NCBI GenBank assembly: GCA_045636325.1
Contig: JAZTXH010000016.1
Location: forward strand, 12,034-76,033
Direction: 5' to 3'
Length of the DNA stretch: 64,000 nt
Source of the DNA: Clostridia bacterium
Lineage (GTDB): Bacteria > Bacillota > Clostridia > UBA1381 > UMGS1253
The notes beneath the pieces are model-generated. The model did no database searches. It saw only the letters and a program-made list of their open reading frames with translations, and was not told the DNA's origin. Positions 11,602 through 57,975 of the stretch are shown one piece after another; within the stretch, counting starts at the first letter, position 1, and every line of letters starts with the position of its first letter. Position numbers and translations under genes: made by a program.

Positions 11602-11631
11602 TTGATTTTTGCGTGCATTTTATTGTATAAT
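11602..11631 (+). promoter_or_regulatory. Sigma-A-type promoter of the metF operon
   Basis: TTGATT, 18-nt spacer, TATAAT. The spacer ('GTGCATTTT') resembles the promoter upstream of the long element at 32503-32531. Confidence 0.5.
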
Positions 11632-11655
11632 AACATTAAAATAGTTTTTATTTTT

Positions 11656-11698
11656 AGCCTGACAGAAGTTATTAGATTCGTATAGCTTATCTCAGGCT
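11656..11698 (+). repeat. Miniature copy (A) of the CTGACAG/CTGTCAG hairpin family, in the metF leader
   Basis: AGCCTGACAGAAG...GATTCGTATAGCTTATCTCAGGCT. The right half is near-identical to the terminal arm of the long copy at 32461-32485. Confidence 0.6.
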
Positions 11699-11722
11699 AA
11701 CCGAATGAAAGGGCTGTATAAA

Positions 11723-18859: not shown

Positions 18860-19515
18860 GAATAGTGTATTTTACAGGCATCATAGAAAATGCGGCGGTG
18901 CAGTATTCTAGTCAGTTCTACTTGCTTTGAAGACGGGCCTAAAAATCCGTTAAAGGGCATATCGATGAAGTTTCTGGTGCTAGCTTTGAACGCCCAGTTC
19001 GGGGTTGGTGCTGGAAGTTAAGGTTATGGGGCGGCCTGCAATGGCATGCAGTTACTGACCCCCATTTCCGTGGAGACCTATTCTTGTGGCTGCCCCTGAG
19101 TCTTAGACTTAAGTCTTACTCAAGCAGTTACGGCTTAGGATTAAACCTGCATATCGGTGCTTTTCTGCGCTGGGTGCAGAGTAGCCTGCCTTGAGTGAAA
19201 TAAGAGGGATAACGGACAAACACTTGTCGCATCGGCCAATGCGTGAGCGTTATTGCTGTTTGAAACTTGTTTTGCAAAAGAGGATAGGAGCAAGTGTGAC
19301 TGTAGAGGAAAACTCCTAGGCTGTTGCTCTATCAGACATTTAAAGGATTGAAATGCGGACTGAGTGGCAGTCAGGTCACAAATGCGGTAACGTATTAGTA
19401 AAGTGTTTTAATGGGAAACCTCCTCTTTGGCGACATTGAGGAAACGCTTTGGGAAATCCTACCTGACCTTAAGCCGCAAAATTTACTTTAGGTGTTACCC
19501 CGCATTCTCTATGCT
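18860..19515 (+). ncRNA. ole: Large structured ncRNA, most likely OLE RNA (ends approximate)
   Basis: About 650 nt with no ORF. It is visibly more G+C-rich than its flanks and has many local and long-range complementary segments. The small membrane protein, dxs and tlyA follow it directly, which is the canonical OLE neighbourhood. Confidence 0.72.
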
Positions 19516-19545
19516 GCCTGTAATTTTTTAAAGTGGTGAATTATT

Positions 19546-27822: not shown

Positions 27823-27899
<77 letters not shown>

Positions 27900-31218: not shown

Positions 31219-31653
31219 ATGTACAGCGAAAAAGTTATGGACCATTTTGCAAACCCCAGAAATGTCGGCGAAATAGAAAATGCCAGCGGTGTCGGTCAGG
31301 TGGGTAATGCAAAATGCGGAGATATTATGAAAATTTATCTTGATATCGAAGATGATATTATAAAAGATGTTAAGTTTAAAACCTTTGGTTGCGGAGCGGC
31401 GGTTGCAACAAGCTCAATGGCAACCGAACTCGTTAAGGGAAAATCTGTTGAAGAAGCATTAAAGCTCACAAATAAAGCGGTTATGGAAGCACTTGACGGT
31501 CTTCCACCGGCGAAAATTCACTGCAGTGTGTTGGCTGAAGAGGCAATTCATGCCGCAATTAAGGATTATTATGAAAAAACAGGCAGAGATACAACTGAGC
31601 TTGAAGCTAAGTGTAGCGGATGCTGCTCAACATGTACAAAACATCACGAATAA
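31219..31653 (+). CDS. nifU: Fe-S cluster assembly scaffold NifU/IscU
   Basis: 'GNAKCGD', 'FGCGAAVA' and 'KIHCSVLA'. Confidence 0.92.
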   Translation: MYSEKVMDHFANPRNVGEIENASGVGQVGNAKCGDIMKIYLDIEDDIIKDVKFKTFGCGAAVATSSMATELVKGKSVEEALKLTNKAVMEALDGLPPAKIHCSVLAEEAIHAAIKDYYEKTGRDTTELEAKCSGCCSTCTKHHE

Positions 31654-31660
31654 AAACTGG

Positions 31661-31698
31661 CAGAAAGATAAGTGCCCTCAAAAGTATTTAAGCTTTTG
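31661..31698. terminator. Bidirectional terminator between nifU and tadA
   Basis: AAGTGCCCTCAAAAG / CTTTTGAGGGCACTT. Confidence 0.85.
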
Positions 31699-31728
31699 AG
31701 GGCACTTTAAGTTTGACAATTTTTATCT

Positions 31729-32196
31729 TTATATATTTTTTCTTGATTTTCTTATGTTTTTAAAAAATTCCGTTAAAAAAGGTGAGCATTCGTCTTTTAA
31801 AACTCCTCCTGTTACGGATACATTATGGTTAAACAGACCGGGCAGAAATAAATCGCATACAGAGCCTGCTGCTCCTGCTTTTTTATCAAATGCACCAAAA
31901 TATACGTTTTTAATTCTGCTTTGAATAATGGCACCGCTGCACATGGGGCATGGCTCTAATGTTATATATAAATCGCAATCTTCAAGACGCCAGCTGCCAA
32001 TTTTTTTGTTTGCTTTTTTAATAGCAAGAAGTTCAGCATGATTTATCGTAAGTTGTTTTGTTTCGCGAAGGTTATGTGCTTTTGAAATTACTTCGCCGTT
32101 ATACACAATTACTGCACCTATTGGGCATTCGCCTTTTTTTTCTGCCTTTTTTGCTTCGGTCATTGCAAGCTTCATAAACTTTTCGTTGTAAGCCAT
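31729..32196 (-). CDS. tadA: tRNA adenosine(34) deaminase
   Basis: 'HAELLAI' and 'PCPMCSGA'. Start placed at MAYNEKFMKLAM behind AGAGAGGGG. The longer ORF-track N-terminus runs into the repeat element. Confidence 0.9.
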   Translation of the reverse strand: MAYNEKFMKLAMTEAKKAEKKGECPIGAVIVYNGEVISKAHNLRETKQLTINHAELLAIKKANKKIGSWRLEDCDLYITLEPCPMCSGAIIQSRIKNVYFGAFDKKAGAAGSVCDLFLPGLFNHNVSVTGGVLKDECSPFLTEFFKNIRKSRKNI

Positions 32197-32223
32197 ATAC
32201 TTCAAAGCCCCTCTCTTCGGATT

Positions 32224-32485
32224 AGTCTGACAAAAGTTATACAAAACTGCCTTGAAAGGCGCAATTTCGGCATATTTTAGTTTGTTACCATTGACAGGAA
32301 CTAGTCTGCCTGTTTCCGGTGTACCAAAATTTGATCGTTTTAAAGAGTGCAAATTTTAAGCGAGATGGTTTTTGTTCAAATAATTCAAAAACGTAACTAA
32401 TACTTTGAGTATTTGCGAGTATTTTAACACAATTTGAGCAAAAATCTGTTGCATAAAATTGGATTCGTATAGCTTCAGTCAGGCT
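32224..32485 (-). ncRNA. Long copy B (262 nt) of an unnamed structured element closed by a CTGACTGAAGCTATAC / GTATAACTTTTGTCAG stem
   Basis: It has no credible ORF and aligns block-wise with 33970-34223. A promoter lies about 18 nt upstream and tadA lies 28 nt downstream on the same strand. Confidence 0.55.
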
Positions 32486-32502
32486 AAAGAACATTTTTAT
32501 AT

Positions 32503-32531
32503 ATTTTACCACAAAAAAATGCACATATCAA
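32503..32531 (-). promoter_or_regulatory. Sigma-A-type promoter driving element B and tadA
   Basis: Read on the minus strand: TTGATA, 17-nt spacer, TAAAAT, with TGG extended -10. Confidence 0.55.
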
Positions 32532-32671
32532 GCACTATGTGTTTTTGATAAAAACACATAGTTTGTGAAATATCACCAAAATAAACTTTTGGTTTTGAGT
32601 TATTATGCTAAATGAAAGTGTAGTTTTTACAAAAAATAGTCTTTGAAATGTGACAAATTTGTGAAAATTAC

Positions 32672-32701
32672 TTGACAATAAATATTAATATCCGATATAA
32701 T
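32672..32701 (+). promoter_or_regulatory. Promoter of sigH
   Basis: TTGACA, 18-nt spacer, TATAAT. Confidence 0.5.
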
Positions 32702-32776
32702 GTGTATATGCATCATATACAAGGGTTTGTTTTTTGCCGTATTTGTATATGGGAGTTTCCGTGGGGTGAGAAAGGT

Positions 32777-33406
32777 ATGGGAACAGACAAAACACAGAGC
32801 CGGTACAGGCCTTTGACAGATGAGGAAGTTGTTAGTTTAGCTCAAAATGGTGATGAGCAGGCGGTTGAACACATCCTTGAAAAATATAAGGCACTTGTTA
32901 AGGCGCGTGTAAGGGCGTATTTTCTTATGGGAGCAGATAAAGAGGACTTGCTTCAGGAGGGTATGATAGGGCTTTTTAAAGCTATAAGAGATTTTTCTGA
33001 AGAGAAGCAAGCCAGTTTTGCCGGCTTTGCAGACCTTTGTGCAACCAGGCAGATTGTTACTGCAATTAAAACTGCAACAAGACAGAAGCATATGCCGCTT
33101 AACAATTATGTTTCGCTCAATAAACCGGTATATACGGATGAATCGGAGCGTACGCTTTTGGATTCAGTTTCGCAGGCGGTTGTGTCAGATCCTGAGCAGA
33201 TTGTTATTAATGAAGAAGAATATAATCGTATTTCAATGAAGATATTAAGCAACTTGTCAAGCTTCGAAAGAGAAGTGCTGGAGTTGTATCTTCAGGGCAA
33301 AAGCTATAATGAGATAGCGACGCAACAAAATCGTTCAGCGAAATCTATAGACAATGCTCTTCAGAGAATAAAAAAGAAGGTAGAAGCAAGCCTTGAAGAA
33401 GAGTAG
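32777..33406 (+). CDS. sigH: RNA polymerase sporulation sigma factor SigH
   Basis: 'LVKARVRAYFLMGADKEDLLQEGMIGLFKAIRDF' and the region 4 HTH 'SYNEIATQQNRSAKSIDNALQRIKKK'. Start placed at MGTDK. Confidence 0.9.
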   Translation: MGTDKTQSRYRPLTDEEVVSLAQNGDEQAVEHILEKYKALVKARVRAYFLMGADKEDLLQEGMIGLFKAIRDFSEEKQASFAGFADLCATRQIVTAIKTATRQKHMPLNNYVSLNKPVYTDESERTLLDSVSQAVVSDPEQIVINEEEYNRISMKILSNLSSFEREVLELYLQGKSYNEIATQQNRSAKSIDNALQRIKKKVEASLEEE

Positions 33407-33523
33407 AAAATCTATATTTGCAAAATAATACCGCGTGGCGGGATTATTTATATTATTTCCAAAGGGTTGGATATTGTGGTAGCTACTCCTTTGGAATCAA
33501 AAATTCAAAGTGAGGGGATACCA

Positions 33524-33793
33524 ATGTACGAAGACAAAACTTTAGTATGTAAGGATTGCGGAAATGAATTCGTGTTTACAGCAGGTGAGCAGGAATTCTA
33601 TGCGGAGAAAGGCTTTGAAAATGAGCCTACTCGTTGTAAAGATTGCAGAGTTGCAAGAAAAGCAGCTATTCGTCAGTCCAGAGAAATGCATGAAATTATT
33701 TGTGCAGATTGTGGTGCAACAGCTCAGGTTCCGTTTAAACCTAAGAACGACAGACCTGTATATTGCAGTGCTTGTCTTGAAAATCACAGATAA
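33524..33793 (+). CDS. Zinc-ribbon (zf-trcl-like, two CxxC...CxxC units) protein
   Basis: 'CKDCGNEFVFTAGEQEFYAEKGFENEPTRCKDCR' and 'CADCG...PVYCSAC'. GAGGGG RBS. Confidence 0.75.
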   Translation: MYEDKTLVCKDCGNEFVFTAGEQEFYAEKGFENEPTRCKDCRVARKAAIRQSREMHEIICADCGATAQVPFKPKNDRPVYCSACLENHR

Positions 33794-33814
33794 TTTGATT
33801 TTTAGACCAAATAT

Positions 33815-33845
33815 GACCATCGCTTAAAGGCGGTGGTCTTTTTTG
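33815..33845 (+). terminator. Rho-independent terminator
   Basis: GACCATCGC / GCGGTGGTC followed by T6. Confidence 0.8.
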
Positions 33846-33861
33846 TGTTAAATAACTTTTT

Positions 33862-33915
33862 TGTGACAGAGGAGTTAACAAGCAAGAATGTGACAGAGGA
33901 GTTAACAAGCAAGAA
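33862..33915 (+). repeat. Perfect tandem duplication (2 x 27 bp) immediately upstream of a promoter
   Basis: TGTGACAGAGGAGTTAACAAGCAAGAA occurs twice with no spacer. It ends 4 nt before the -35. Confidence 0.9.
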
Positions 33916-33919
33916 AATA

Positions 33920-33949
33920 TTGACATTGGGGACTAAGTTGTGATACAAT
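33920..33949 (+). promoter_or_regulatory. Sigma-A-type promoter driving element C and the yybS-gdpP-rplI-dnaB operon
   Basis: TTGACA, 18-nt spacer, TACAAT, with TGA extended -10. Confidence 0.6.
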
Positions 33950-33969
33950 ATATAATACCTGTGATTTAA

Positions 33970-34223
33970 CCCGACAGAAGCTATACGAACCTGATTTTCG
34001 CTCGAACGGTGTTAAAATACCCTCAGATACTAAAAGTATTAACTGAGGTTTCGCTTTGTCTGGCACAAAAATCATCTCGCTTAAAATTCTTTGACCTTAA
34101 AATGATGAAATTTTGAGTAGATTTTAGTGCGCTAGATGCAGGCAGTTGCCTATCAATTACAGCAAATCAAAATATGCCGAAATTACTCCTTTTAAGGAAC
34201 AGAGCGGATAACTTCTGTCAGGA
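33970..34223 (+). ncRNA. Long copy C (about 254 nt) of the unnamed structured element
   Basis: It is closed by GACAGAAGCTAT / ATAACTTCTGTC and contains internal hairpins (CCTCAG-ATACT...AGTAT-CTGAGG; TCCTT-tt-AAGGA). It has no ORF. It sits between the promoter and the yybS start at 34273. Confidence 0.55.
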
Positions 34224-34272
34224 TAATGGAGATTTAGTATTTATGTGCTAATTTTATTTGGATGGAGATTTT

Positions 34273-35220
34273 ATGAATAATAAAAATATTATTGAGATTT
34301 TTACAGCAGATGCAATAATTCTGGCGGCTATGTTTATATTTGGTTTTTTTGATTTAGGAGAAATCGGAATTGTGTTTTCGGCGGGTGCTCTTTCATTTAT
34401 AATGCTTAGAGGGAATTTGTTTTCTGTTGCTCTTAGTGTGGTTTTGGTGTTTGCCGCAGATTTTGCAAGTATGCTTTCCTTTAATTTTATAAACAGCATT
34501 ACGGTATGCATGTGTGCTTTTGGCATAAATTTTGCAATCCGTGCAAAAATGGGAATTTTAAGCACAACTGTTTCGGGCATTGTTGGAATATTTGCGGCAA
34601 TAGCGGTATTTTTTGCAGTGGCCGAGATTTTTAAAATTGAAGGTATGCAAATTTCAGACATAAGAGCAATAAAAGAAGAAATAATCAAGGTTATTGACAA
34701 CATTATGGTACAAAGCGGATTTGATAAGGCATATTCACCGACAGAAGCGGTAAAATTAAAGAATCTTGCATCAATGGTTATGTTTCCGGTAAGCCTTATT
34801 TCGGTGGCTGCGTTTATTTCTTATTACTCTGTTTGCGTAGTAAAGAAAATGTTTAAAATTGTAAAAAGCGACCTTTGTGCAAATATCTCAGATTTTTCAC
34901 ATATAAGGGCTGAAAGAATGTGCCTTGCTATATGGATTGTATCATTGGCGCTATTTTCCGGATTTGAAATGAAAAATCAGGTTATAAGTGCGGCAGGATT
35001 TTGTATGTTATACATTCTGTCTGCTTTTTATGTAATATGCGGCATCAGCATTTTGTGGTATTTTATGAAAAGGAAAACAGGAGTGGGAAGAGTACTGTAT
35101 GGTATGTTTATAATTTTCGGAGTTTTTTTTATGACACCTACACTTTTTATAGCAGGAATTGTGGACTCGTTTGTCAATATAAGAAAACTAGGGAACAGGA
35201 GAGGTGAAAATGAGCAGTAA
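34273..35220 (+). CDS. YybS-like (DUF2232) polytopic membrane protein
   Basis: Multi-TM protein. Its position directly upstream of gdpP-rplI-dnaB matches the Bacillus yybS-yybT-rplI-dnaC arrangement. Confidence 0.7.
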   Translation: MNNKNIIEIFTADAIILAAMFIFGFFDLGEIGIVFSAGALSFIMLRGNLFSVALSVVLVFAADFASMLSFNFINSITVCMCAFGINFAIRAKMGILSTTVSGIVGIFAAIAVFFAVAEIFKIEGMQISDIRAIKEEIIKVIDNIMVQSGFDKAYSPTEAVKLKNLASMVMFPVSLISVAAFISYYSVCVVKKMFKIVKSDLCANISDFSHIRAERMCLAIWIVSLALFSGFEMKNQVISAAGFCMLYILSAFYVICGISILWYFMKRKTGVGRVLYGMFIIFGVFFMTPTLFIAGIVDSFVNIRKLGNRRGENEQ

Positions 35221-37252
35221 AAGAAAAAGGAATAAGCATTTTATAAATATGCTTTATCAGGCAACGTCTGTTGCTACATGGTGTATACTTTTATGTGCGG
35301 TTATTACATTTTTGCTTGCTGGCGGAAATAAATATTTTATATATCTTGCAATTATGGAGGCTATAGTTTTTGTTGTATTGATTATGCTCAAATTCCTTGA
35401 AAAGAAAAGGCGTTTGAGTGATGTTTCGGACTACGTGTCTCAGCTTAATAAACATATGGATACTGCAACAAAGGAATCTTTGGTAAATTTCCCCTTTCCG
35501 ATGGTTGTTGCACATCTTGATGGTAAGGTTTCCTGGTATAATCAAGGGTTTGCAAAAATAGTTGAGGGCGAAGTGCTTTTTGAAAAGTATCTTTCAGAGG
35601 TTATCACGGGGCTTAAGTGGAGTGACGTTTTAAGAATGCATGAGGGGATTTCACTTACCGTTAATTACCGCCAGAGGATATATAGCGTAATGGGAAGTAT
35701 TATAAAGCCTGACTCCAAAAAGGAAAAAGAGGGTGAATACCTTGTTTTGCTGTATTGGCTGGATGAAACAGAAAAGAAAAAGGTTATTGAAAAATACAAC
35801 GATGAAAAAATGGACATCGGAATTATTATGATTGACAATTATGACGATGTTTTAAACGGAATGGAAGACTGGGCAAGACCGAGACTTATCTCAAAAATTG
35901 ACCAGAAGGTAAATGAATGGGCAAAGCCGGTTGGAGGAATATTAAAAAAGCCTGACCGTGACAGATATCTTTTGTTTTTTGAACATAAGAATCTTTCAAC
36001 TCTTATTGAAAAGAAATTTGAAATTTTAGACTGGATACGAGAGATTAACGTGGGTAATAAAACTCAGGCTACCGTAAGTATAGGAATTGGTACCGGTGGT
36101 GAACATATAAACAGTAACGATGAGTATTCAAGAACTGCACTTAATATGGCACTTGGTCGCGGTGGTGATCAGGCTGTTATTAAAGACGAAAATCAGTTTA
36201 AATTCTATGGCGGAAAAACAAAAGAGCATGAAAAGAGTACAAGAGTAAAATCGAGAGTTATTGCAGAAGCTTTAAGGCAGCTTATAATGAGTGCTGAAAA
36301 GGTAGTAATTGTAGGTCATAAAAATCCTGACCTTGATTCTATCGGTGCAAGTGTGGGGCTTTCGAGGGGTATAAAAAACAGAAATAAGCCCGTAAAAATT
36401 ATTTGCGGAGCACACAATTCTTCGGTTGACGGCGTTTTAGAGGCGGCAAAGGCGGAAGAAGGATATGACGGTATGTTTATTACAGCTGAAGAGGCAAATG
36501 AATATGTAGATAAAAATAGCGTTGTTATTGTTGTGGACACTCACAGACCTGTGCTTATGGAAAATTCTGATATTCTTGAAAAGGCAGGAGATGTGGTATT
36601 AATTGACCACCACAGAAGAAGCACTGATTTTATTACGGGGTGTTCTTTGGTATATCATGAGCCTTATGCATCGTCAACAAGTGAATTGGTAACTGAGCTT
36701 TTGCAGTATATGGATAATAAAGTTTCTCTTACCAAGTCGGAGGCGGAAGCTCTTTATGCAGGCATTTGTATGGATACAAAGAATTTTACATTTAAAACCG
36801 GTGTAAGAACATTTGATGCGGCATCATTTTTAAGAAAACATGGTGTTGATACTGTAAGAGTTAAAAAGATGTTTCAGGTGGATATGGCACATTATAACAA
36901 TCGTGCGCAGATTGTGGCAAATGCGAGATTTGTGCATGAGGGAATTGTTATGGCTATATGCGAAAGGTTTATAAACGATACAAATCTTGTGGCGGCGCAG
37001 GCAGCAGATGAGCTTTTGAAAATTGAAGATGTAGAGGCATCATTTGTTGTTGCCAAAGATGAGAATAACACAATTGTTGTAAGCGGTCGTTCGTGGGGCG
37101 GAATTAATGTGCAGGTAATACTTGAAAAAATTGGCGGCGGCGGGCATATGACTGTTGCCGGCGCGCAGCTTAAAGATATTGCGCTTTCAGAAGTTTCAAG
37201 TAAGCTGGAAAGCGCTTTGGAAGAATATCTTGAGGAAAGAAGTAATCAATGA
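35210..37252 (+). CDS. gdpP: GdpP/YybT-type DHH/DHHA1 c-di-AMP phosphodiesterase (2 TM, PAS-like, degenerate GGDEF, DHH)
   Basis: 'DLDSIGA', 'VDTHR', 'IDHHRR' and 'GGGGH'. Two N-terminal TM helices. Confidence 0.88.
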
Positions 37253-37266
37253 ATCGGAGGAATAAA

Positions 37267-37716
37267 ATGAGAGTAATATTGTTAGCAGATGTTAAAGGTC
37301 AGGGCAAGAAGGGTGATATTAAAGAAGTTTCAGACGGATATGCAAGAAACTTTTTATTGCCTAAAAAGCTTGCTACACTTGCAACAAATGAGAATTTAAA
37401 TGCAATAGAAGGAAAAAGAGAAGCAGCAGCTTTCCATAAAGGAAAAGAAATAGAAGAAGCAAATATTTTAAAAGAAAAGCTTTCTAAAATCAGCGTTAGT
37501 CTTAAGGCTAAAGCCGGTGATGGCGGACGTCTGTTTGGTTCTATTACAAATAAAGATGTTGCTGAAGGCCTTAAGATGCAGCATCATATTATTATAGACA
37601 AAAAGAAATTTTCACTTCCTGACGGAGGTCTTAAAAACATTGGTGCAACTGAAATTGATGTAAAGGTTTATCCTGAAATTTCGGCTAAACTAAAGGTTGT
37701 TATAGAAGCAGAGTAA
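37267..37716 (+). CDS. rplI: 50S ribosomal protein L9
   Basis: '[36 protein letters not shown]'. Confidence 0.95.
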
Positions 37717-37753: not shown

Positions 37754-39094
37754 ATGGATTCTGTAGGAAAAACTATGCCTTACAGCGTCGAGGCTGAGCA
37801 GTCTGTGCTTGGTGGTGTTTTAATTGATTCAAACAGTATAGCAGTTGTAAGTGAGATAGTAAAAGAAAGCGATTTTTATTTTGAACATAACAGAAATATA
37901 TTTGCAGTTATGCAGGATTTGTTTAACTCAAACCAACCGATAGATATTGTTACGGTTTCTGACTTACTGACAAGAAAAGGTCTGCTTGATAAAATTGGCG
38001 GAGTAAGTTATCTTTCGTCTATTGCATCTGCAGTTCCCACGACGGCGAATATAACACAGTATGCAGAAATTGTTTCCCAGAAAGCTACACTAAGAAAGCT
38101 TGTTGATGCGGGTAGCACTATTATGAATCTTGGCTATGATGCACCTGATGGTGTTGAATCAGCAGTAGTTCAGGCAGAAAAGGCTATTTTTGATATAACA
38201 CAGAATAATGATTCAAGCGGAGTTGTTCACATTCGAGAAGTTTTAGGCGATAGCTTTAAAATGATGCAGGAAATGGCAGATAAAAAAGGAAAGGTTTCCG
38301 GTGTGCCCACCGGATTTGGATATCTTGATCAGATGACAGCGGGTCTGCAGAAAAGCGACCTTGTTTTAATTGCCGCAAGACCGGCAATGGGCAAAACAAG
38401 TTTTGCTTTAAATATTGCCCAAAATGCGGCTATAAGAAACGGCATCACAACTGCTATATTTAATCTTGAAATGAGCCGCGAACAGCTTGCTAATCGTATA
38501 ATATGCGGAGAAGCTATGGTAAGCGGTAATAAGCTTAAAGAGGGAAGCCTTGATGCTGAAGACTGGATAAGAATAGGCGAAAACCTTGCACAGATTGAAA
38601 AAGCTCCTTTATATATTGATGACTCTTCATCGGTAACGGTGTCGCAGATAAGAGCTAAATGCAGAAGACTTAAGCAAAGGCATAATCTTGGACTGGTTGT
38701 TATAGACTATCTTCAGCTTATGCAGGGTAATGGGAGAGATGAAAACCGTCAGAATGTGGTAGCTGATATTTCCCGTTCATTAAAAATACTTGCAAAAGAG
38801 CTTAATATTCCTATAATCACACTTTCGCAGCTGTCCCGTGGTCCGGAAAGCAGGTCGGATAAAAGACCTATGCTTTCAGATTTGCGTGAATCCGGCGCGA
38901 TAGAGCAGGATGCTGACATAGTAATCTTTTTATACAGGGATGAGTATTACAATCCTGACAGTGCAGAGCAAAACATTGCAGAGTGTATTATAGCAAAACA
39001 TCGTAATGGTGAAACGGGTACAATTAAGCTTTGGTGGGATGGTGCGCACACCAGATTTATGCATTTGGAAAGGCAGTATAATGAGGAAGAATAG
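37754..39094 (+). CDS. dnaB: Replicative DNA helicase DnaB (DnaC in Bacillus nomenclature)
   Basis: 'PYSVEAEQSVLG', 'AARPAMGKTSFALN' and 'SQLSR'. Confidence 0.95.
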   Translation: MDSVGKTMPYSVEAEQSVLGGVLIDSNSIAVVSEIVKESDFYFEHNRNIFAVMQDLFNSNQPIDIVTVSDLLTRKGLLDKIGGVSYLSSIASAVPTTANITQYAEIVSQKATLRKLVDAGSTIMNLGYDAPDGVESAVVQAEKAIFDITQNNDSSGVVHIREVLGDSFKMMQEMADKKGKVSGVPTGFGYLDQMTAGLQKSDLVLIAARPAMGKTSFALNIAQNAAIRNGITTAIFNLEMSREQLANRIICGEAMVSGNKLKEGSLDAEDWIRIGENLAQIEKAPLYIDDSSSVTVSQIRAKCRRLKQRHNLGLVVIDYLQLMQGNGRDENRQNVVADISRSLKILAKELNIPIITLSQLSRGPESRSDKRPMLSDLRESGAIEQDADIVIFLYRDEYYNPDSAEQNIAECIIAKHRNGETGTIKLWWDGAHTRFMHLERQYNEEE

Positions 39095-52671: not shown

Positions 52672-52680
52672 TATGTCTGC

Positions 52681-52712
52681 GGCGACAGGAAAATGAAAAT
52701 TTCTGTCAGGCT
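52681..52712 (+). repeat. Miniature copy (E) of the CTGACAG/CTGTCAG hairpin family
   Basis: GGCGACAGGAAAATGAAAATTTCTGTCAGGCT, between galU and hslO. Confidence 0.5.
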
Positions 52713-53807: not shown

Positions 53808-53883
53808 GGGAGTATAGCTCAGCTGGGAGAGCATCTGCCTTACAAGCAGAGGGTCACAGGTTCGAGCCCTGTTACTCCCACCA
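53808..53883 (+). tRNA. tRNA-Val (TAC)
   Basis: Hand-folded cloverleaf with anticodon loop CTTACAA. CCA encoded. Confidence 0.92.
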
Positions 53884-53886
53884 TTT

Positions 53887-53963
53887 GGCCCGGTAGTTCA
53901 GTTGGTTAGAACGCCAGCCTGTCACGCTGGAGGTCGTGGGTTCGAGCCCCATCCGGGTCGCCA
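53887..53963 (+). tRNA. tRNA-Asp (GTC)
   Basis: Anticodon stem CCAGC/GCTGG, loop CTGTCAC. CCA encoded. Confidence 0.92.
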
Positions 53964-54016
53964 AATCATTCTTTATGAGTAAGTAGTTGTTGAGTTTTTT
54001 TGAGCTCAGCAGGTAT

Positions 54017-54092
54017 GCCTCTGTAGCTCAGTCGGTAGAGCAAGGGACTGAAAATCCCTGTGTCGATGGTTCGATTCCGTCCGGAGGCACCA
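54017..54092 (+). tRNA. tRNA-Phe (GAA)
   Basis: Anticodon stem AGGGA/TCCCT, loop CTGAAAA. CCA encoded. Confidence 0.92.
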
Positions 54093-54098
54093 AACTAT

Positions 54099-54173
54099 GC
54101 GGGAGTGGCTCAGTGGTAGAGCGTCACCTTGCCAAGGTGAACGTCGCGAGTTCGAATCTCGTCTTCCGCTCCA
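54099..54173 (+). tRNA. tRNA-Gly (GCC)
   Basis: Anticodon stem TCACC/GGTGA, loop TTGCCAA. CCA encoded. Confidence 0.92.
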
Positions 54174-54183
54174 ATTTTTTGAT

Positions 54184-54213
54184 ACAAAAGGTGCATATTA
54201 TTGCACCTTTTGT
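54184..54213 (+). terminator. Hairpin between tRNA-Gly and tRNA-Cys
   Basis: ACAAAAGGTGCA / TGCACCTTTTGT. Confidence 0.5.
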
Positions 54214-54236
54214 ATTAGAATATAATAAGTGAATAA

Positions 54237-54310
54237 GGCGCCATCGCCAAGTGGTAAGGCACGGGTCTGCAACACCCTTATCCCCAGTTCAAATCTGGGT
54301 GGCGCCTCCA
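54237..54310 (+). tRNA. tRNA-Cys (GCA)
   Basis: Acceptor GGCGCCA/TGGCGCC, anticodon loop CTGCAAC. CCA encoded. Confidence 0.88.
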
Positions 54311-54316
54311 GAATTC

Positions 54317-54349
54317 GCGGTCAAAATAGATGCAATCTGTTTTGACCGC
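54317..54349 (+). terminator. Terminator of the tRNA cluster
   Basis: GCGGTCAAAA / TTTTGACCGC followed by ATTTTT. Confidence 0.7.
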
Positions 54350-54520
54350 ATTTTTACGCACTTTTCGGGCAATTTTCAAAAATCCCGTTTGAATAAAAGA
54401 CAGTAGATGCACCCACCGTTTCTACCAGTCTTGAACCAGAGACAACGGCATAAATCCTATAAAAATTTGACTTGACTACATAAAAGATGCAAGTTACAAC
54501 ATACAGGATACGAACCCTAA
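54337..54520 (+). repeat. Left bipartite direct repeat of the island
   Basis: CTGTTTTGACCGCATTTTTACGCACTTTTCGGG... and CTACATAAAAGATGCAAGTTACAACATACAGGATACGAACCCTAA, separated by about 90 nt that are absent from the right copy. Confidence 0.8.
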
Positions 54521-54612
54521 CACAAATTAATACAGATAAATGAAGGCGATAATTTCAGAAATGAAGTTATCGTCTTTTTTTATACCCAAAATTACAGGAA
54601 GGAGGAAACCTA

Positions 54613-55284
54613 ATGAATGTAGAAAGATTTTTGATTCAAGTAAAGAAAAACCTGCCGCAACATGAAGGTGTAATTACTTGGCTTGAAGATTCAGCATTAA
54701 AGGTTGGATATGGAGATTCAGGAAGTTTTGAAATCAGATATCCCGGAGGCATTTGTTATAATGCCGCAACTGAGAAGACCGATGAGTTTTACAAATTGGT
54801 CGAAGAAGCTGATAAAGCTTTCAAAACAGTTAAGGAATATATTGATTTGATGGACAAGGCTCCAGAACTCACAGCGAGAGACTTCAATATGCCATATAAG
54901 TTACTTGCAGAATTCAACGGAGTTGTACTTGGCGGAATTGAGCATCGGTCAAACAACACCTTTGAATTCACAACGTGGTCATACGCAGACAATTCTTTAT
55001 ATCACGGTCATTACTTTGACAATTACGAAAAAGCGAAGGAAGATTTCGCAGTAAGATCAGGATTGCTTCAATCAACAAAATTGTTTACGGACAAAGAGAT
55101 GATGCAGATATATCGTTGTACAGAAGATACATTAAACAACGGATATGAGTTGTCGAGTGAGCAGACTGAGGTATTAGAGCAGGTACAGGAGAAGATTAAG
55201 GAATCTATTCCGAACTTTGATGAAAAGCTTCGTGAAGAGATTGATCAGGAATGCGAAGAAGAAATGGAAATAAAAATGTATTAA
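54613..55284 (+). CDS. Hypothetical protein (acidic C-terminus)
   Basis: 223 aa with an AGGAAGGAGG RBS. From memory it resembles cargo proteins of Firmicutes conjugative elements; this is unverified. Confidence 0.6.
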   Translation: MNVERFLIQVKKNLPQHEGVITWLEDSALKVGYGDSGSFEIRYPGGICYNAATEKTDEFYKLVEEADKAFKTVKEYIDLMDKAPELTARDFNMPYKLLAEFNGVVLGGIEHRSNNTFEFTTWSYADNSLYHGHYFDNYEKAKEDFAVRSGLLQSTKLFTDKEMMQIYRCTEDTLNNGYELSSEQTEVLEQVQEKIKESIPNFDEKLREEIDQECEEEMEIKMY

Positions 55285-57808: not shown

Positions 57809-57910
57809 CTGTTTTGACAGCATTTTTACGCACTTTTCGGGGGTTTCAAAAATTTGATTTACCTACATAAAAGATGTAAGTAAGACATACAGGATACAAA
57901 TCCTATAATA
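57809..57910 (+). repeat. Right bipartite direct repeat of the island
   Basis: CTGTTTTGACAGCATTTTTACGCACTTTTCGGG... and CTACATAAAAGATGTAAGTAAGACATACAGGATACAAATCCTATAA. Confidence 0.8.
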
Positions 57911-57975
57911 AATCATCATAAAACTATCCTCTGATAAATATAATTATTTACAAATTATATTTATGGGGGGTATAT

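Follow-up and report, generated by a model that had tools for sequence, protein, structure and literature searches.

Bacterial miniature inverted-repeat transposable elements (MITEs) are recognized by their terminal inverted repeats, a terminal 5'-TA-3' motif, the duplication of their target site, the occurrence of both filled and empty sites, and transcripts that form long stem-loops (PMC2229807). The present work concerns two elements of about 260 nucleotides (nt), here called copy A and copy B, in a stretch of 64,000 nt from a Clostridia bacterium (contig JAZTXH010000016.1), the whole of which is referred to below as the window. An earlier note on this DNA had read the two elements, which lie in the 5' leaders of tadA and of the yybS-gdpP-rplI-dnaB operon, as a transcribed structured RNA, with a mobile promoter-proximal element as its fallback. 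The inverted repeats, the TA duplication, the lack of coding capacity and the presence of several copies together make it very probable that copies A and B are full-length non-autonomous DNA transposons of the MITE type, about 255-260 bp in size, and that a third copy of 41 bp is an internally deleted derivative.

Among the described systems, the Firmicutes precedent for a TA-targeting element is RUP, a MITE of 107 bp and approximately 110 copies per genome that has been proposed to be mobilized by IS630-Spn1 (PMC2229807, PMC3049150). Like RUP, the present element occupies intergenic DNA of a Firmicutes host, is non-coding, carries terminal inverted repeats, is inserted at TA, and would yield a transcript with paired ends (PMC2229807, PMC3049150). 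Unlike the present element, RUP has a known parent insertion sequence (IS) and is enriched between convergent genes, whereas the copies described here all lie upstream of genes. The present element is further distinguished by its length of 255-260 bp and its non-palindromic interior, and its sequence resembles that of none of the elements retrieved.

The Correia or NEMIS elements of Neisseria also possess terminal inverted repeats, a TA duplication, filled and empty sites, and size variants that arise by internal deletion (PMC2229807, PMC3049150). They are often co-transcribed with their neighbours, their paired ends are substrates of RNase III, and they can create promoters (PMC2229807, PMC3049150). 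However, they reside in Proteobacteria, measure 107-155 bp, have 24-bp terminal repeats and hundreds of copies, and bear no sequence relationship to the present element; moreover, their effects at the RNA level have been demonstrated experimentally, while the present element is known from sequence alone. The ERIC or IRU elements of enterobacteria are similarly small, flanked by TA and bounded by inverted repeats, and, being co-transcribed with flanking genes, they can change mRNA stability in an orientation-dependent manner (PMC2229807), yet these elements, of about 127 bp and from another host group, are likewise unrelated in sequence. Finally, 6S RNA, the large Bacillus-type SRP RNA, and raiA and comparable motifs (Rfam 15) share with the present element a length of roughly 200-270 nt and a long closing stem. 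In contrast to these RNAs, the element matches none of their covariance models at E<=10, is not conserved at orthologous loci, and has transposon ends and target duplications.

Two homologous copies and a 41-nt derivative

Alignment of the reverse complement of positions 32224-32485 with positions 33970-34223 runs the full length of both elements and comprises 180 matches, 61 mismatches and 34 gap columns. This corresponds to an identity of 74.7% over aligned bases, or of 65.5% when gaps are counted, in agreement with the two-thirds identity that had been estimated by eye. The local alignment score is 131, compared with 19.0 +/- 2.6 for dinucleotide shuffles (z ~42), and the homology of the two copies is therefore beyond doubt. 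The conserved blocks that had been listed were all found in both copies, which share four identical runs of at least 12 nt where 1.8 would be expected (P = 0.09); the clustering of these blocks is not clearly beyond chance, nor is it a strong sign of patchy constraint. While the existence of two copies stood as described, their boundaries required adjustment, as the target-site duplications place them at 32225-32484 (260 nt, minus strand) and 33969-34223 (255 nt, plus strand).

The three copies measure 260, 255 and 41 nt, and coding capacity is absent: no open reading frame (ORF) is common to copies A and B in any of the six frames, in line with the earlier judgement that neither holds a credible ORF. 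Searches in protein space with the stop-free translations and pseudo-ORFs of the element, covering both mis-called ORFs and a parent transposase, returned no homologues or candidates.

Imperfect terminal inverted repeats of 16-21 nt are found at the ends of all three copies, with the consensus GCCTGACnGAAGCTATAC ... GTATAACTTyTGTCAGGC. A degenerate pattern of these ends, CYGACNRAAGYTATMC, has six matches in the window against 0.72 expected, a number reached in none of 100 shuffles. The terminal stems described in the earlier note are therefore real, and its "closing stem" is the pair of terminal repeats. The ends of copies A and B account for four of the six matches, and the other two stand back to back at 11659-11695, within the 41-nt mini copy (TA-GCCTGACAGAAGTTATTAGATTCGTATAGCTTATCTCAGGC-TA including its flanks). 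This mini copy consists of a right end joined directly to a left end, with the interior missing; it is 87% identical to the left end of copy A over 30 nt, and forms a hairpin of -16.6 kcal/mol (z -4.5). In three of three copies the left end reads AAGCTAT and the right end AAGTTAT, and such a constant asymmetry between left and right is typical of insertion sequences whose inverted repeats are imperfect.

Besides these three copies, the 64-kb window holds one doubtful fourth remnant at about 52672-52711. This is an intergenic hairpin whose end, TTCTGTCAGGC, is identical to the final 11 nt of the MITE's right end and which has CGACAG as its upstream partner. It is without clear TA flanks, and could be a decayed fourth mini copy, a chance match or a terminator.

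Filled and empty insertion sites

Six metagenome contigs of related organisms encode the 89-residue zinc-ribbon protein without any change, and positions 31600-34700 of the window were compared with these contigs by blastn. The flanks of the elements are 82-97% identical to two of these contigs, L002 and L003. Window positions 32492-33969 and 34224-34697 are contiguous in L003 (387-1847 and 1845-2318) and in L002 (1015-2476 and 2474-2949), in each case with a 3-nt overlap, such that exactly the 254-255 nt of copy B are missing from both. Similarly, the 294 nt of window 32198-32491, which hold copy A, are represented by 31 nt in L003.

Comparison of the junctions identifies the duplicated target. 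With the element in brackets, the filled junction of copy B reads GATTTA[ACCCGAC...GTCAGGA]TAATGGAG, and the empty one reads GATTTAATGGAG in L002 and GGTTTAATGGAG in L003; for copy A, the filled junction is GGATTA[GTCTGAC...GTCAGGC]TAAAG and its empty counterpart in L003 is GATTAAAAG. The site of the mini copy is empty, with a single TA, in L112, the closest relative, which has a MetF of 92% identity and was recovered from the sample that also yielded L003: the sequence GTTTTTGTTTTTAACTAAACG stands there in place of GTTTTTATTTTTA[41 nt]TAACCGAATG in the window. Every filled site has TA on both sides and the empty sites have a single TA, and TA is the only duplication that fits all three copies. 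The target duplication of a MITE is thus documented by empty sites for each copy, in L002 and L003 for copy B, in L003 for copy A, and in L112 for the mini copy.

The comparison was extended to eleven further or same-lineage contigs (including L001 and L104-L111), in which the SigH homologues are 75-91% identical. The spacer between tadA and sigH is approximately 290-340 nt in the relatives' contigs but 580 nt in the window, and that between the zinc-ribbon gene (zn) and yybS is approximately 100-210 nt where the contig reaches the downstream gene, against 480 nt in the window. An nhmmer profile built from the two copies found no match at the tadA-sigH and zn-yybS sites of these eleven contigs. 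In every related contig that was examined, the orthologous leaders lack the copies. These contigs derive from gut, Hadza and other metagenomes, and the best named relatives of SigH are only about 61% identical (for example, in Xylanivirga); the lineage is an uncultured group of Clostridia.

A target duplication of TA is a hallmark of the IS630/Tc1-mariner group, and the 2-bp duplication observed here points to mobilization in trans by a transposase of that type. Judging from other MITEs, the ends would be the binding and cleavage sites of a transposase supplied in trans by a full-length IS elsewhere in the genome or the community. Integration would take place at TA, in the context TTTA^A, where a staggered cut of 2 bp would be repaired with duplication of the TA. 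An IS200/IS605-derived palindromic element of the PATE type was also considered. Such elements have neither terminal inverted repeats nor a target duplication, but carry subterminal hairpins and insert 3' of a fixed tetra- or pentanucleotide; the terminal inverted repeats and TA duplication of the present copies do not fit this type.

Searches for further members of the family returned several candidates, all of which were rejected. Seven matches to the left-end pattern (CYGACNGAAGCTATACGAA) in species-representative genomes are ascribed to chance, since none is accompanied by a right end or an nhmmer match. A pattern of internal block plus right end gave 77 metagenome and 11 viral matches, that of left end plus block gave two viral matches, and the terminal-repeat pattern gave 43 viral matches, none of which is nhmmer-homologous or has paired ends. 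The two-ended pattern had no match in the JGI metagenomes and IMG/VR, nor did BLAST of copy B match any PLSDB plasmid or INPHARED phage. Exact look-ups of the window's SigH (in two start variants), TadA and YybS proteins likewise gave no entry that would lead to further contigs of the species. A weak nhmmer match in the related MAG contig L106 (E = 2e-4) was dismissed because its similarity to copies A and B is not above that of shuffles (z 0.3-0.5), with one reverse-strand comparison at z 4.2. The matched sequence, at 8068-8370 of L106, looks like a different MITE family: it is extremely palindromic and about 300 nt long, with 36-nt inverted ends, two long internal hairpins and a minimum free energy of -142 kcal/mol (z -12.9). 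It is flanked on one side by a pyruvate:ferredoxin oxidoreductase operon and on the other by an FMN riboswitch (119.8 bits) that precedes an ECF riboflavin transporter.

Copies A and B differ at 25% of aligned positions, while the intergenic DNA of their host is only about 5-18% different from L002 and L003. The two copies therefore stem from master copies that had already diverged, and not from a local duplication of one another, which in turn implies a larger or older family somewhere.

Several points weigh against identification as a MITE, or against parts of it. Only three copies were found, all within the window, and no other member was seen in about 185,000 species-representative genomes, the JGI metagenomes, IMG/VR, plasmids and phages. 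An autonomous IS with matching ends or transposase was not found in the window, the relatives' contigs or the public collections, which were scanned by end patterns; the rest of the source genome lay outside these searches. The assignment to the IS630 type is drawn solely from the 2-bp TA duplication, and the duplication at copy B could equally be read as TAA, a reading that is possible for this copy only. Furthermore, classic bacterial MITEs measure 100-200 bp and are more hairpin-like than the present element with its 255-260 bp and non-palindromic interior, and the internal blocks common to two copies of 75% identity (P = 0.09) could reflect constraint. The earlier note had reserved the verdict of a plain MITE for an element with many copies, target-site duplications and an autonomous IS sharing its inverted repeats; the inverted repeats, the duplications and further copies are present, but the autonomous IS is not among the sequences found.

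Folding, placement and rival readings

For the rival reading of copies A and B as two paralogous structured-RNA genes or leaders of an undescribed family, kept by selection upstream of housekeeping genes, their folding does offer some encouragement. Both strands fold below shuffled controls, and both copies are co-oriented with their downstream genes. The proposed sense strands have folding energies of -56.7 kcal/mol (z -2.8) and -64.4 kcal/mol (z -3.2). The antisense strands, however, fold better, at -70.2 kcal/mol (z -4.2) and -72.2 kcal/mol (z -4.0), in part because a C-A mismatch in the terminal stem turns into G-U there, and antisense folding that equals or exceeds that of the sense strand fits symmetry at the DNA level and not a selected RNA. 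The hairpin TCCTT/AAGGA in one copy and GCCTT/AAGGC in the other is present as had been described, but it is the sole compensatory change among the 42 predicted pairs of the consensus fold, which also has three one-sided changes; as there are only two sequences, the count is without statistical weight. Likewise, the helix CUUAAAAUU/AAUUUUGAG, an A/U-run palindrome, can form U-G wobble pairs on the sense strand in both copies, yet the strandedness that had been claimed from it fails on the whole: the antisense strands fold better.

Searches of Rfam 15 at gathering thresholds (6S, SRP, RNase P, tmRNA, T-box, riboswitches, raiA and others) gave no match in the region, in accordance with the earlier note, which could assign the element to no known RNA family. 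At E<=10, there were only scattered matches to unrelated families far below the gathering score, namely to eukaryotic snoRNA and miRNA models and one proteobacterial small-RNA model, two of which partly overlap the elements. Above all, no related contig has the elements in its orthologous leaders, and these empty sites largely refute a selected RNA; the exact TA-flanked boundaries, the inverted-repeat ends, and a 41-nt derivative that keeps the ends only also speak against it. No selected RNA structure is required by the data, and a structured-RNA origin is very improbable; of the two proposals in the earlier note, the RNA leader or small RNA falls, and its fallback of a mobile promoter-proximal element was essentially right.

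The inverted arrangement of the two copies, 1484 bp apart and flanking sigH and the zf_Tbcl gene, would also be compatible with a composite transposon that imported these genes, and the empty sites could in principle have arisen by precise deletion of ancestral elements in the relatives. Synteny and the separate TA duplications lead us to reject both readings, which are the least credible of those considered. The order tadA-sigH-zn-yybS is the same in the element-free contigs L002, L003 and L106, the DNA between the copies is 87-97% identical to that of relatives, and each copy has its own TA duplication. Ancestral deletion would moreover need repeated precise losses at three sites and in several lineages, each leaving one TA.

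The position of the copies relative to promoters prompts one to ask if the element has acquired a function. Both sigma-A-type promoters that had been proposed were confirmed, with 10/12 and 11/12 matches and the TG extension, but, contrary to the earlier suggestion, they do not belong to the elements: they are conserved in relatives without the elements, in the case of the yybS promoter with its TTGACAT...TGnTAAAAT kept in L002 and L003. They are therefore the host genes' own promoters and older than the insertions, and the elements landed in the DNA that separates the promoter from the ribosome-binding site. The distance from the -10 box to the start of the TA insertion site is 17 nt for tadA, 18 nt for yybS and 24 nt for the mini copy at metF, such that three of three insertions lie 16-23 nt past a -10 box, within 5' leaders and upstream of the ribosome-binding site. 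By a rough, post-hoc estimate on three cases, three such hits within those three intergenic regions would arise at random with a chance of roughly 1%. No terminator-like site was found between copies A and B and the downstream start codons, as had been noted earlier, nor inside either copy.

Together, these observations could be taken to indicate a co-opted MITE, which lands or survives in the first 10-20 or so transcribed nucleotides after sigma-A promoters and acts as a portable structured 5'-leader RNA, either as a module of mRNA stability or RNase processing or as an internal promoter, and which couples tadA, yybS-gdpP-rplI-dnaB and metF post-transcriptionally. In addition to the placement (about 1% by the above estimate) and the absence of an internal terminator, both full-length copies are oriented alike to their downstream gene, a TGnTAAAAT-like extended -10 motif lies within a block conserved in copies A and B (GTGTTAAAATAC), and in other bacteria the Correia, ERIC and BIME elements act on the mRNAs with which they are co-transcribed (PMC2229807, PMC3049150). 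Yet the number of insertions is three and the estimate post hoc, the mini copy is oppositely oriented, relatives express the tadA, yybS and metF genes without the element, the conservation of the blocks is not significant (P = 0.09), and the antisense strands fold better. Co-option is thus unlikely. The placement could reflect a preference for TTTA^A in A+T-rich leaders, selection against insertion at other sites, or a real affinity for promoter-proximal DNA; it is unlike that of pneumococcal repeats, for which an enrichment between convergent genes is described (PMC3049150).

As a plain MITE, with copies located at about +10 to +17 of host promoters and no terminator in between, the element would be co-transcribed within the 5' untranslated regions, and its paired ends would form a long stem in the transcript, as in known MITE transcripts. 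Through passive co-transcription, it is probably part of the tadA, yybS-operon and metF leaders. While the paired ends could influence RNA processing or stability, as those of Correia, ERIC and BIME elements do, the effect on expression of tadA, yybS-gdpP-rplI-dnaB or metF may be neutral.

Neighbouring features and significance

The positions of the elements, their target duplications, and the adjacent promoters and genes are collected in Table 1. Between copies A and B lie the gene for a SigH-type sigma factor and the zf_Tbcl zinc-ribbon gene (Pfam), and the gene downstream of the mini copy was recognized as metF by the MTHFR domain on its homologues.

Table 1. Coordinates of the MITE copies and of associated features in the window.
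Feature	Position	Strand	Remarks
Copy A, full-length MITE	32225..32484	-	260 nt; tadA 5' leader; left end faces promoter
Copy A, left terminal inverted repeat, GCCTGACTGAAGCTATACGAA	32464..32484	-	16/21 positions agree with the right end read in reverse complement
Copy A, right terminal inverted repeat, ...TTTGTATAACTTTTGTCAGAC	32225..32245	-	
Copy B, full-length MITE	33969..34223	+	255 nt; yybS-gdpP-rplI-dnaB 5' leader; left end faces promoter
Copy B, left terminal inverted repeat, ACCCGACAGAAGCTATACGAA	33969..33989	+	
Copy B, right terminal inverted repeat, ...GCGGATAACTTCTGTCAGGA	34203..34223	+	
Mini copy	11657..11697	-	41 nt; metF 5' leader, orientation opposite to metF; from end-pattern matches
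TA target-site duplication, copy A, promoter side	32485..32486		L003 empty site
TA target-site duplication, copy A, tadA side	32223..32224		L003 empty site
TA target-site duplication, copy B, left	33967..33968		TAA if the element starts at 33970
TA target-site duplication, copy B, right	34224..34225		junction comparison
TA target-site duplication, mini copy	left 11655..11656, right 11698-11699		ATTTTTA[41 nt]TAACCG vs GTTTTTAACTAAACG in L112
Sigma-A-type promoter of tadA	32503..32531	-	10/12 matches with TG; kept in element-free L003 and L002
Sigma-A-type promoter of yybS operon	33920..33949	+	11/12 matches with TG
Promoter-like site of metF	11602..11631	+	conserved in L112
tadA (tRNA adenosine deaminase)	31729..32196	-	Pfam MafB19-deam, dCMP_cyt_deam_1; downstream of copy A
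yybS-like DUF2232 membrane protein	34273..35220	+	Pfam; first gene after copy B
gdpP	35204-37252		Pfam; after yybS
rplI, dnaB (putative)	ORFs 37249-37716, 37754-39094		taken from the order DUF2232, GdpP, L9, DnaB in L106

The longest ORF for tadA, at 31729-32352 on the minus strand (207 residues, TTG start), runs into copy A, whereas homologues favour the ATG at 32196 as the start, which gives a protein of 155 residues (156-161 in relatives); automatic gene calling may extend tadA too far, into the element. A 26-nt unit (GTGACAGAGGAGTTAACAAGCAAGAA) is perfectly duplicated in tandem at 33864-33915, immediately before the -35 box of the yybS promoter; the sequence of L002 and L003 is unrelated there. 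This duplication could be the result of recent slippage or a duplicated regulator site. A near-perfect palindrome, CACTATGTGTTTTTGATAAAAACACATAGTTTGTG, at 32534-32566 separates the divergent promoters of tadA and sigH; it could be an operator or else a bidirectional hairpin, and is the source of a spurious mir-460 match in Rfam.

Elsewhere in the window, a full-length OLE (ornate large extremophilic) RNA is found at 18879-19517 on the plus strand, with a score of 483 bits against a gathering threshold of 50 (E = 1e-138). Transfer RNA genes form a cluster of five at 53808-54307 (plus strand), with one more isolated at 27826-27899 (minus strand). An upstream region of 110-190 nt is present in two copies, at 54337-54560 and 57809-57960, with blocks of 97% and 88% identity and an 85-nt insertion or deletion; one copy follows the tRNA cluster, and an operon begins after each (at 54613 and 57976). 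It is probably a duplicated promoter or leader region.

The elements described here appear to represent an undescribed MITE family in an uncultured, gut-associated lineage of Clostridia. The finding is real but fairly ordinary, and of low to moderate interest. It does illustrate an annotation trap, in that a well-folding, ORF-free and promoter-proximal insert of 260 nt with a closing stem mimics a new riboswitch or small RNA, and the comparison of filled and empty sites in close relatives provides a quick way of separating transposon inserts from RNAs. If the promoter-proximal placement holds genome-wide, the family would offer a modestly interesting example of MITEs that remodel the 5' leaders of essential genes.

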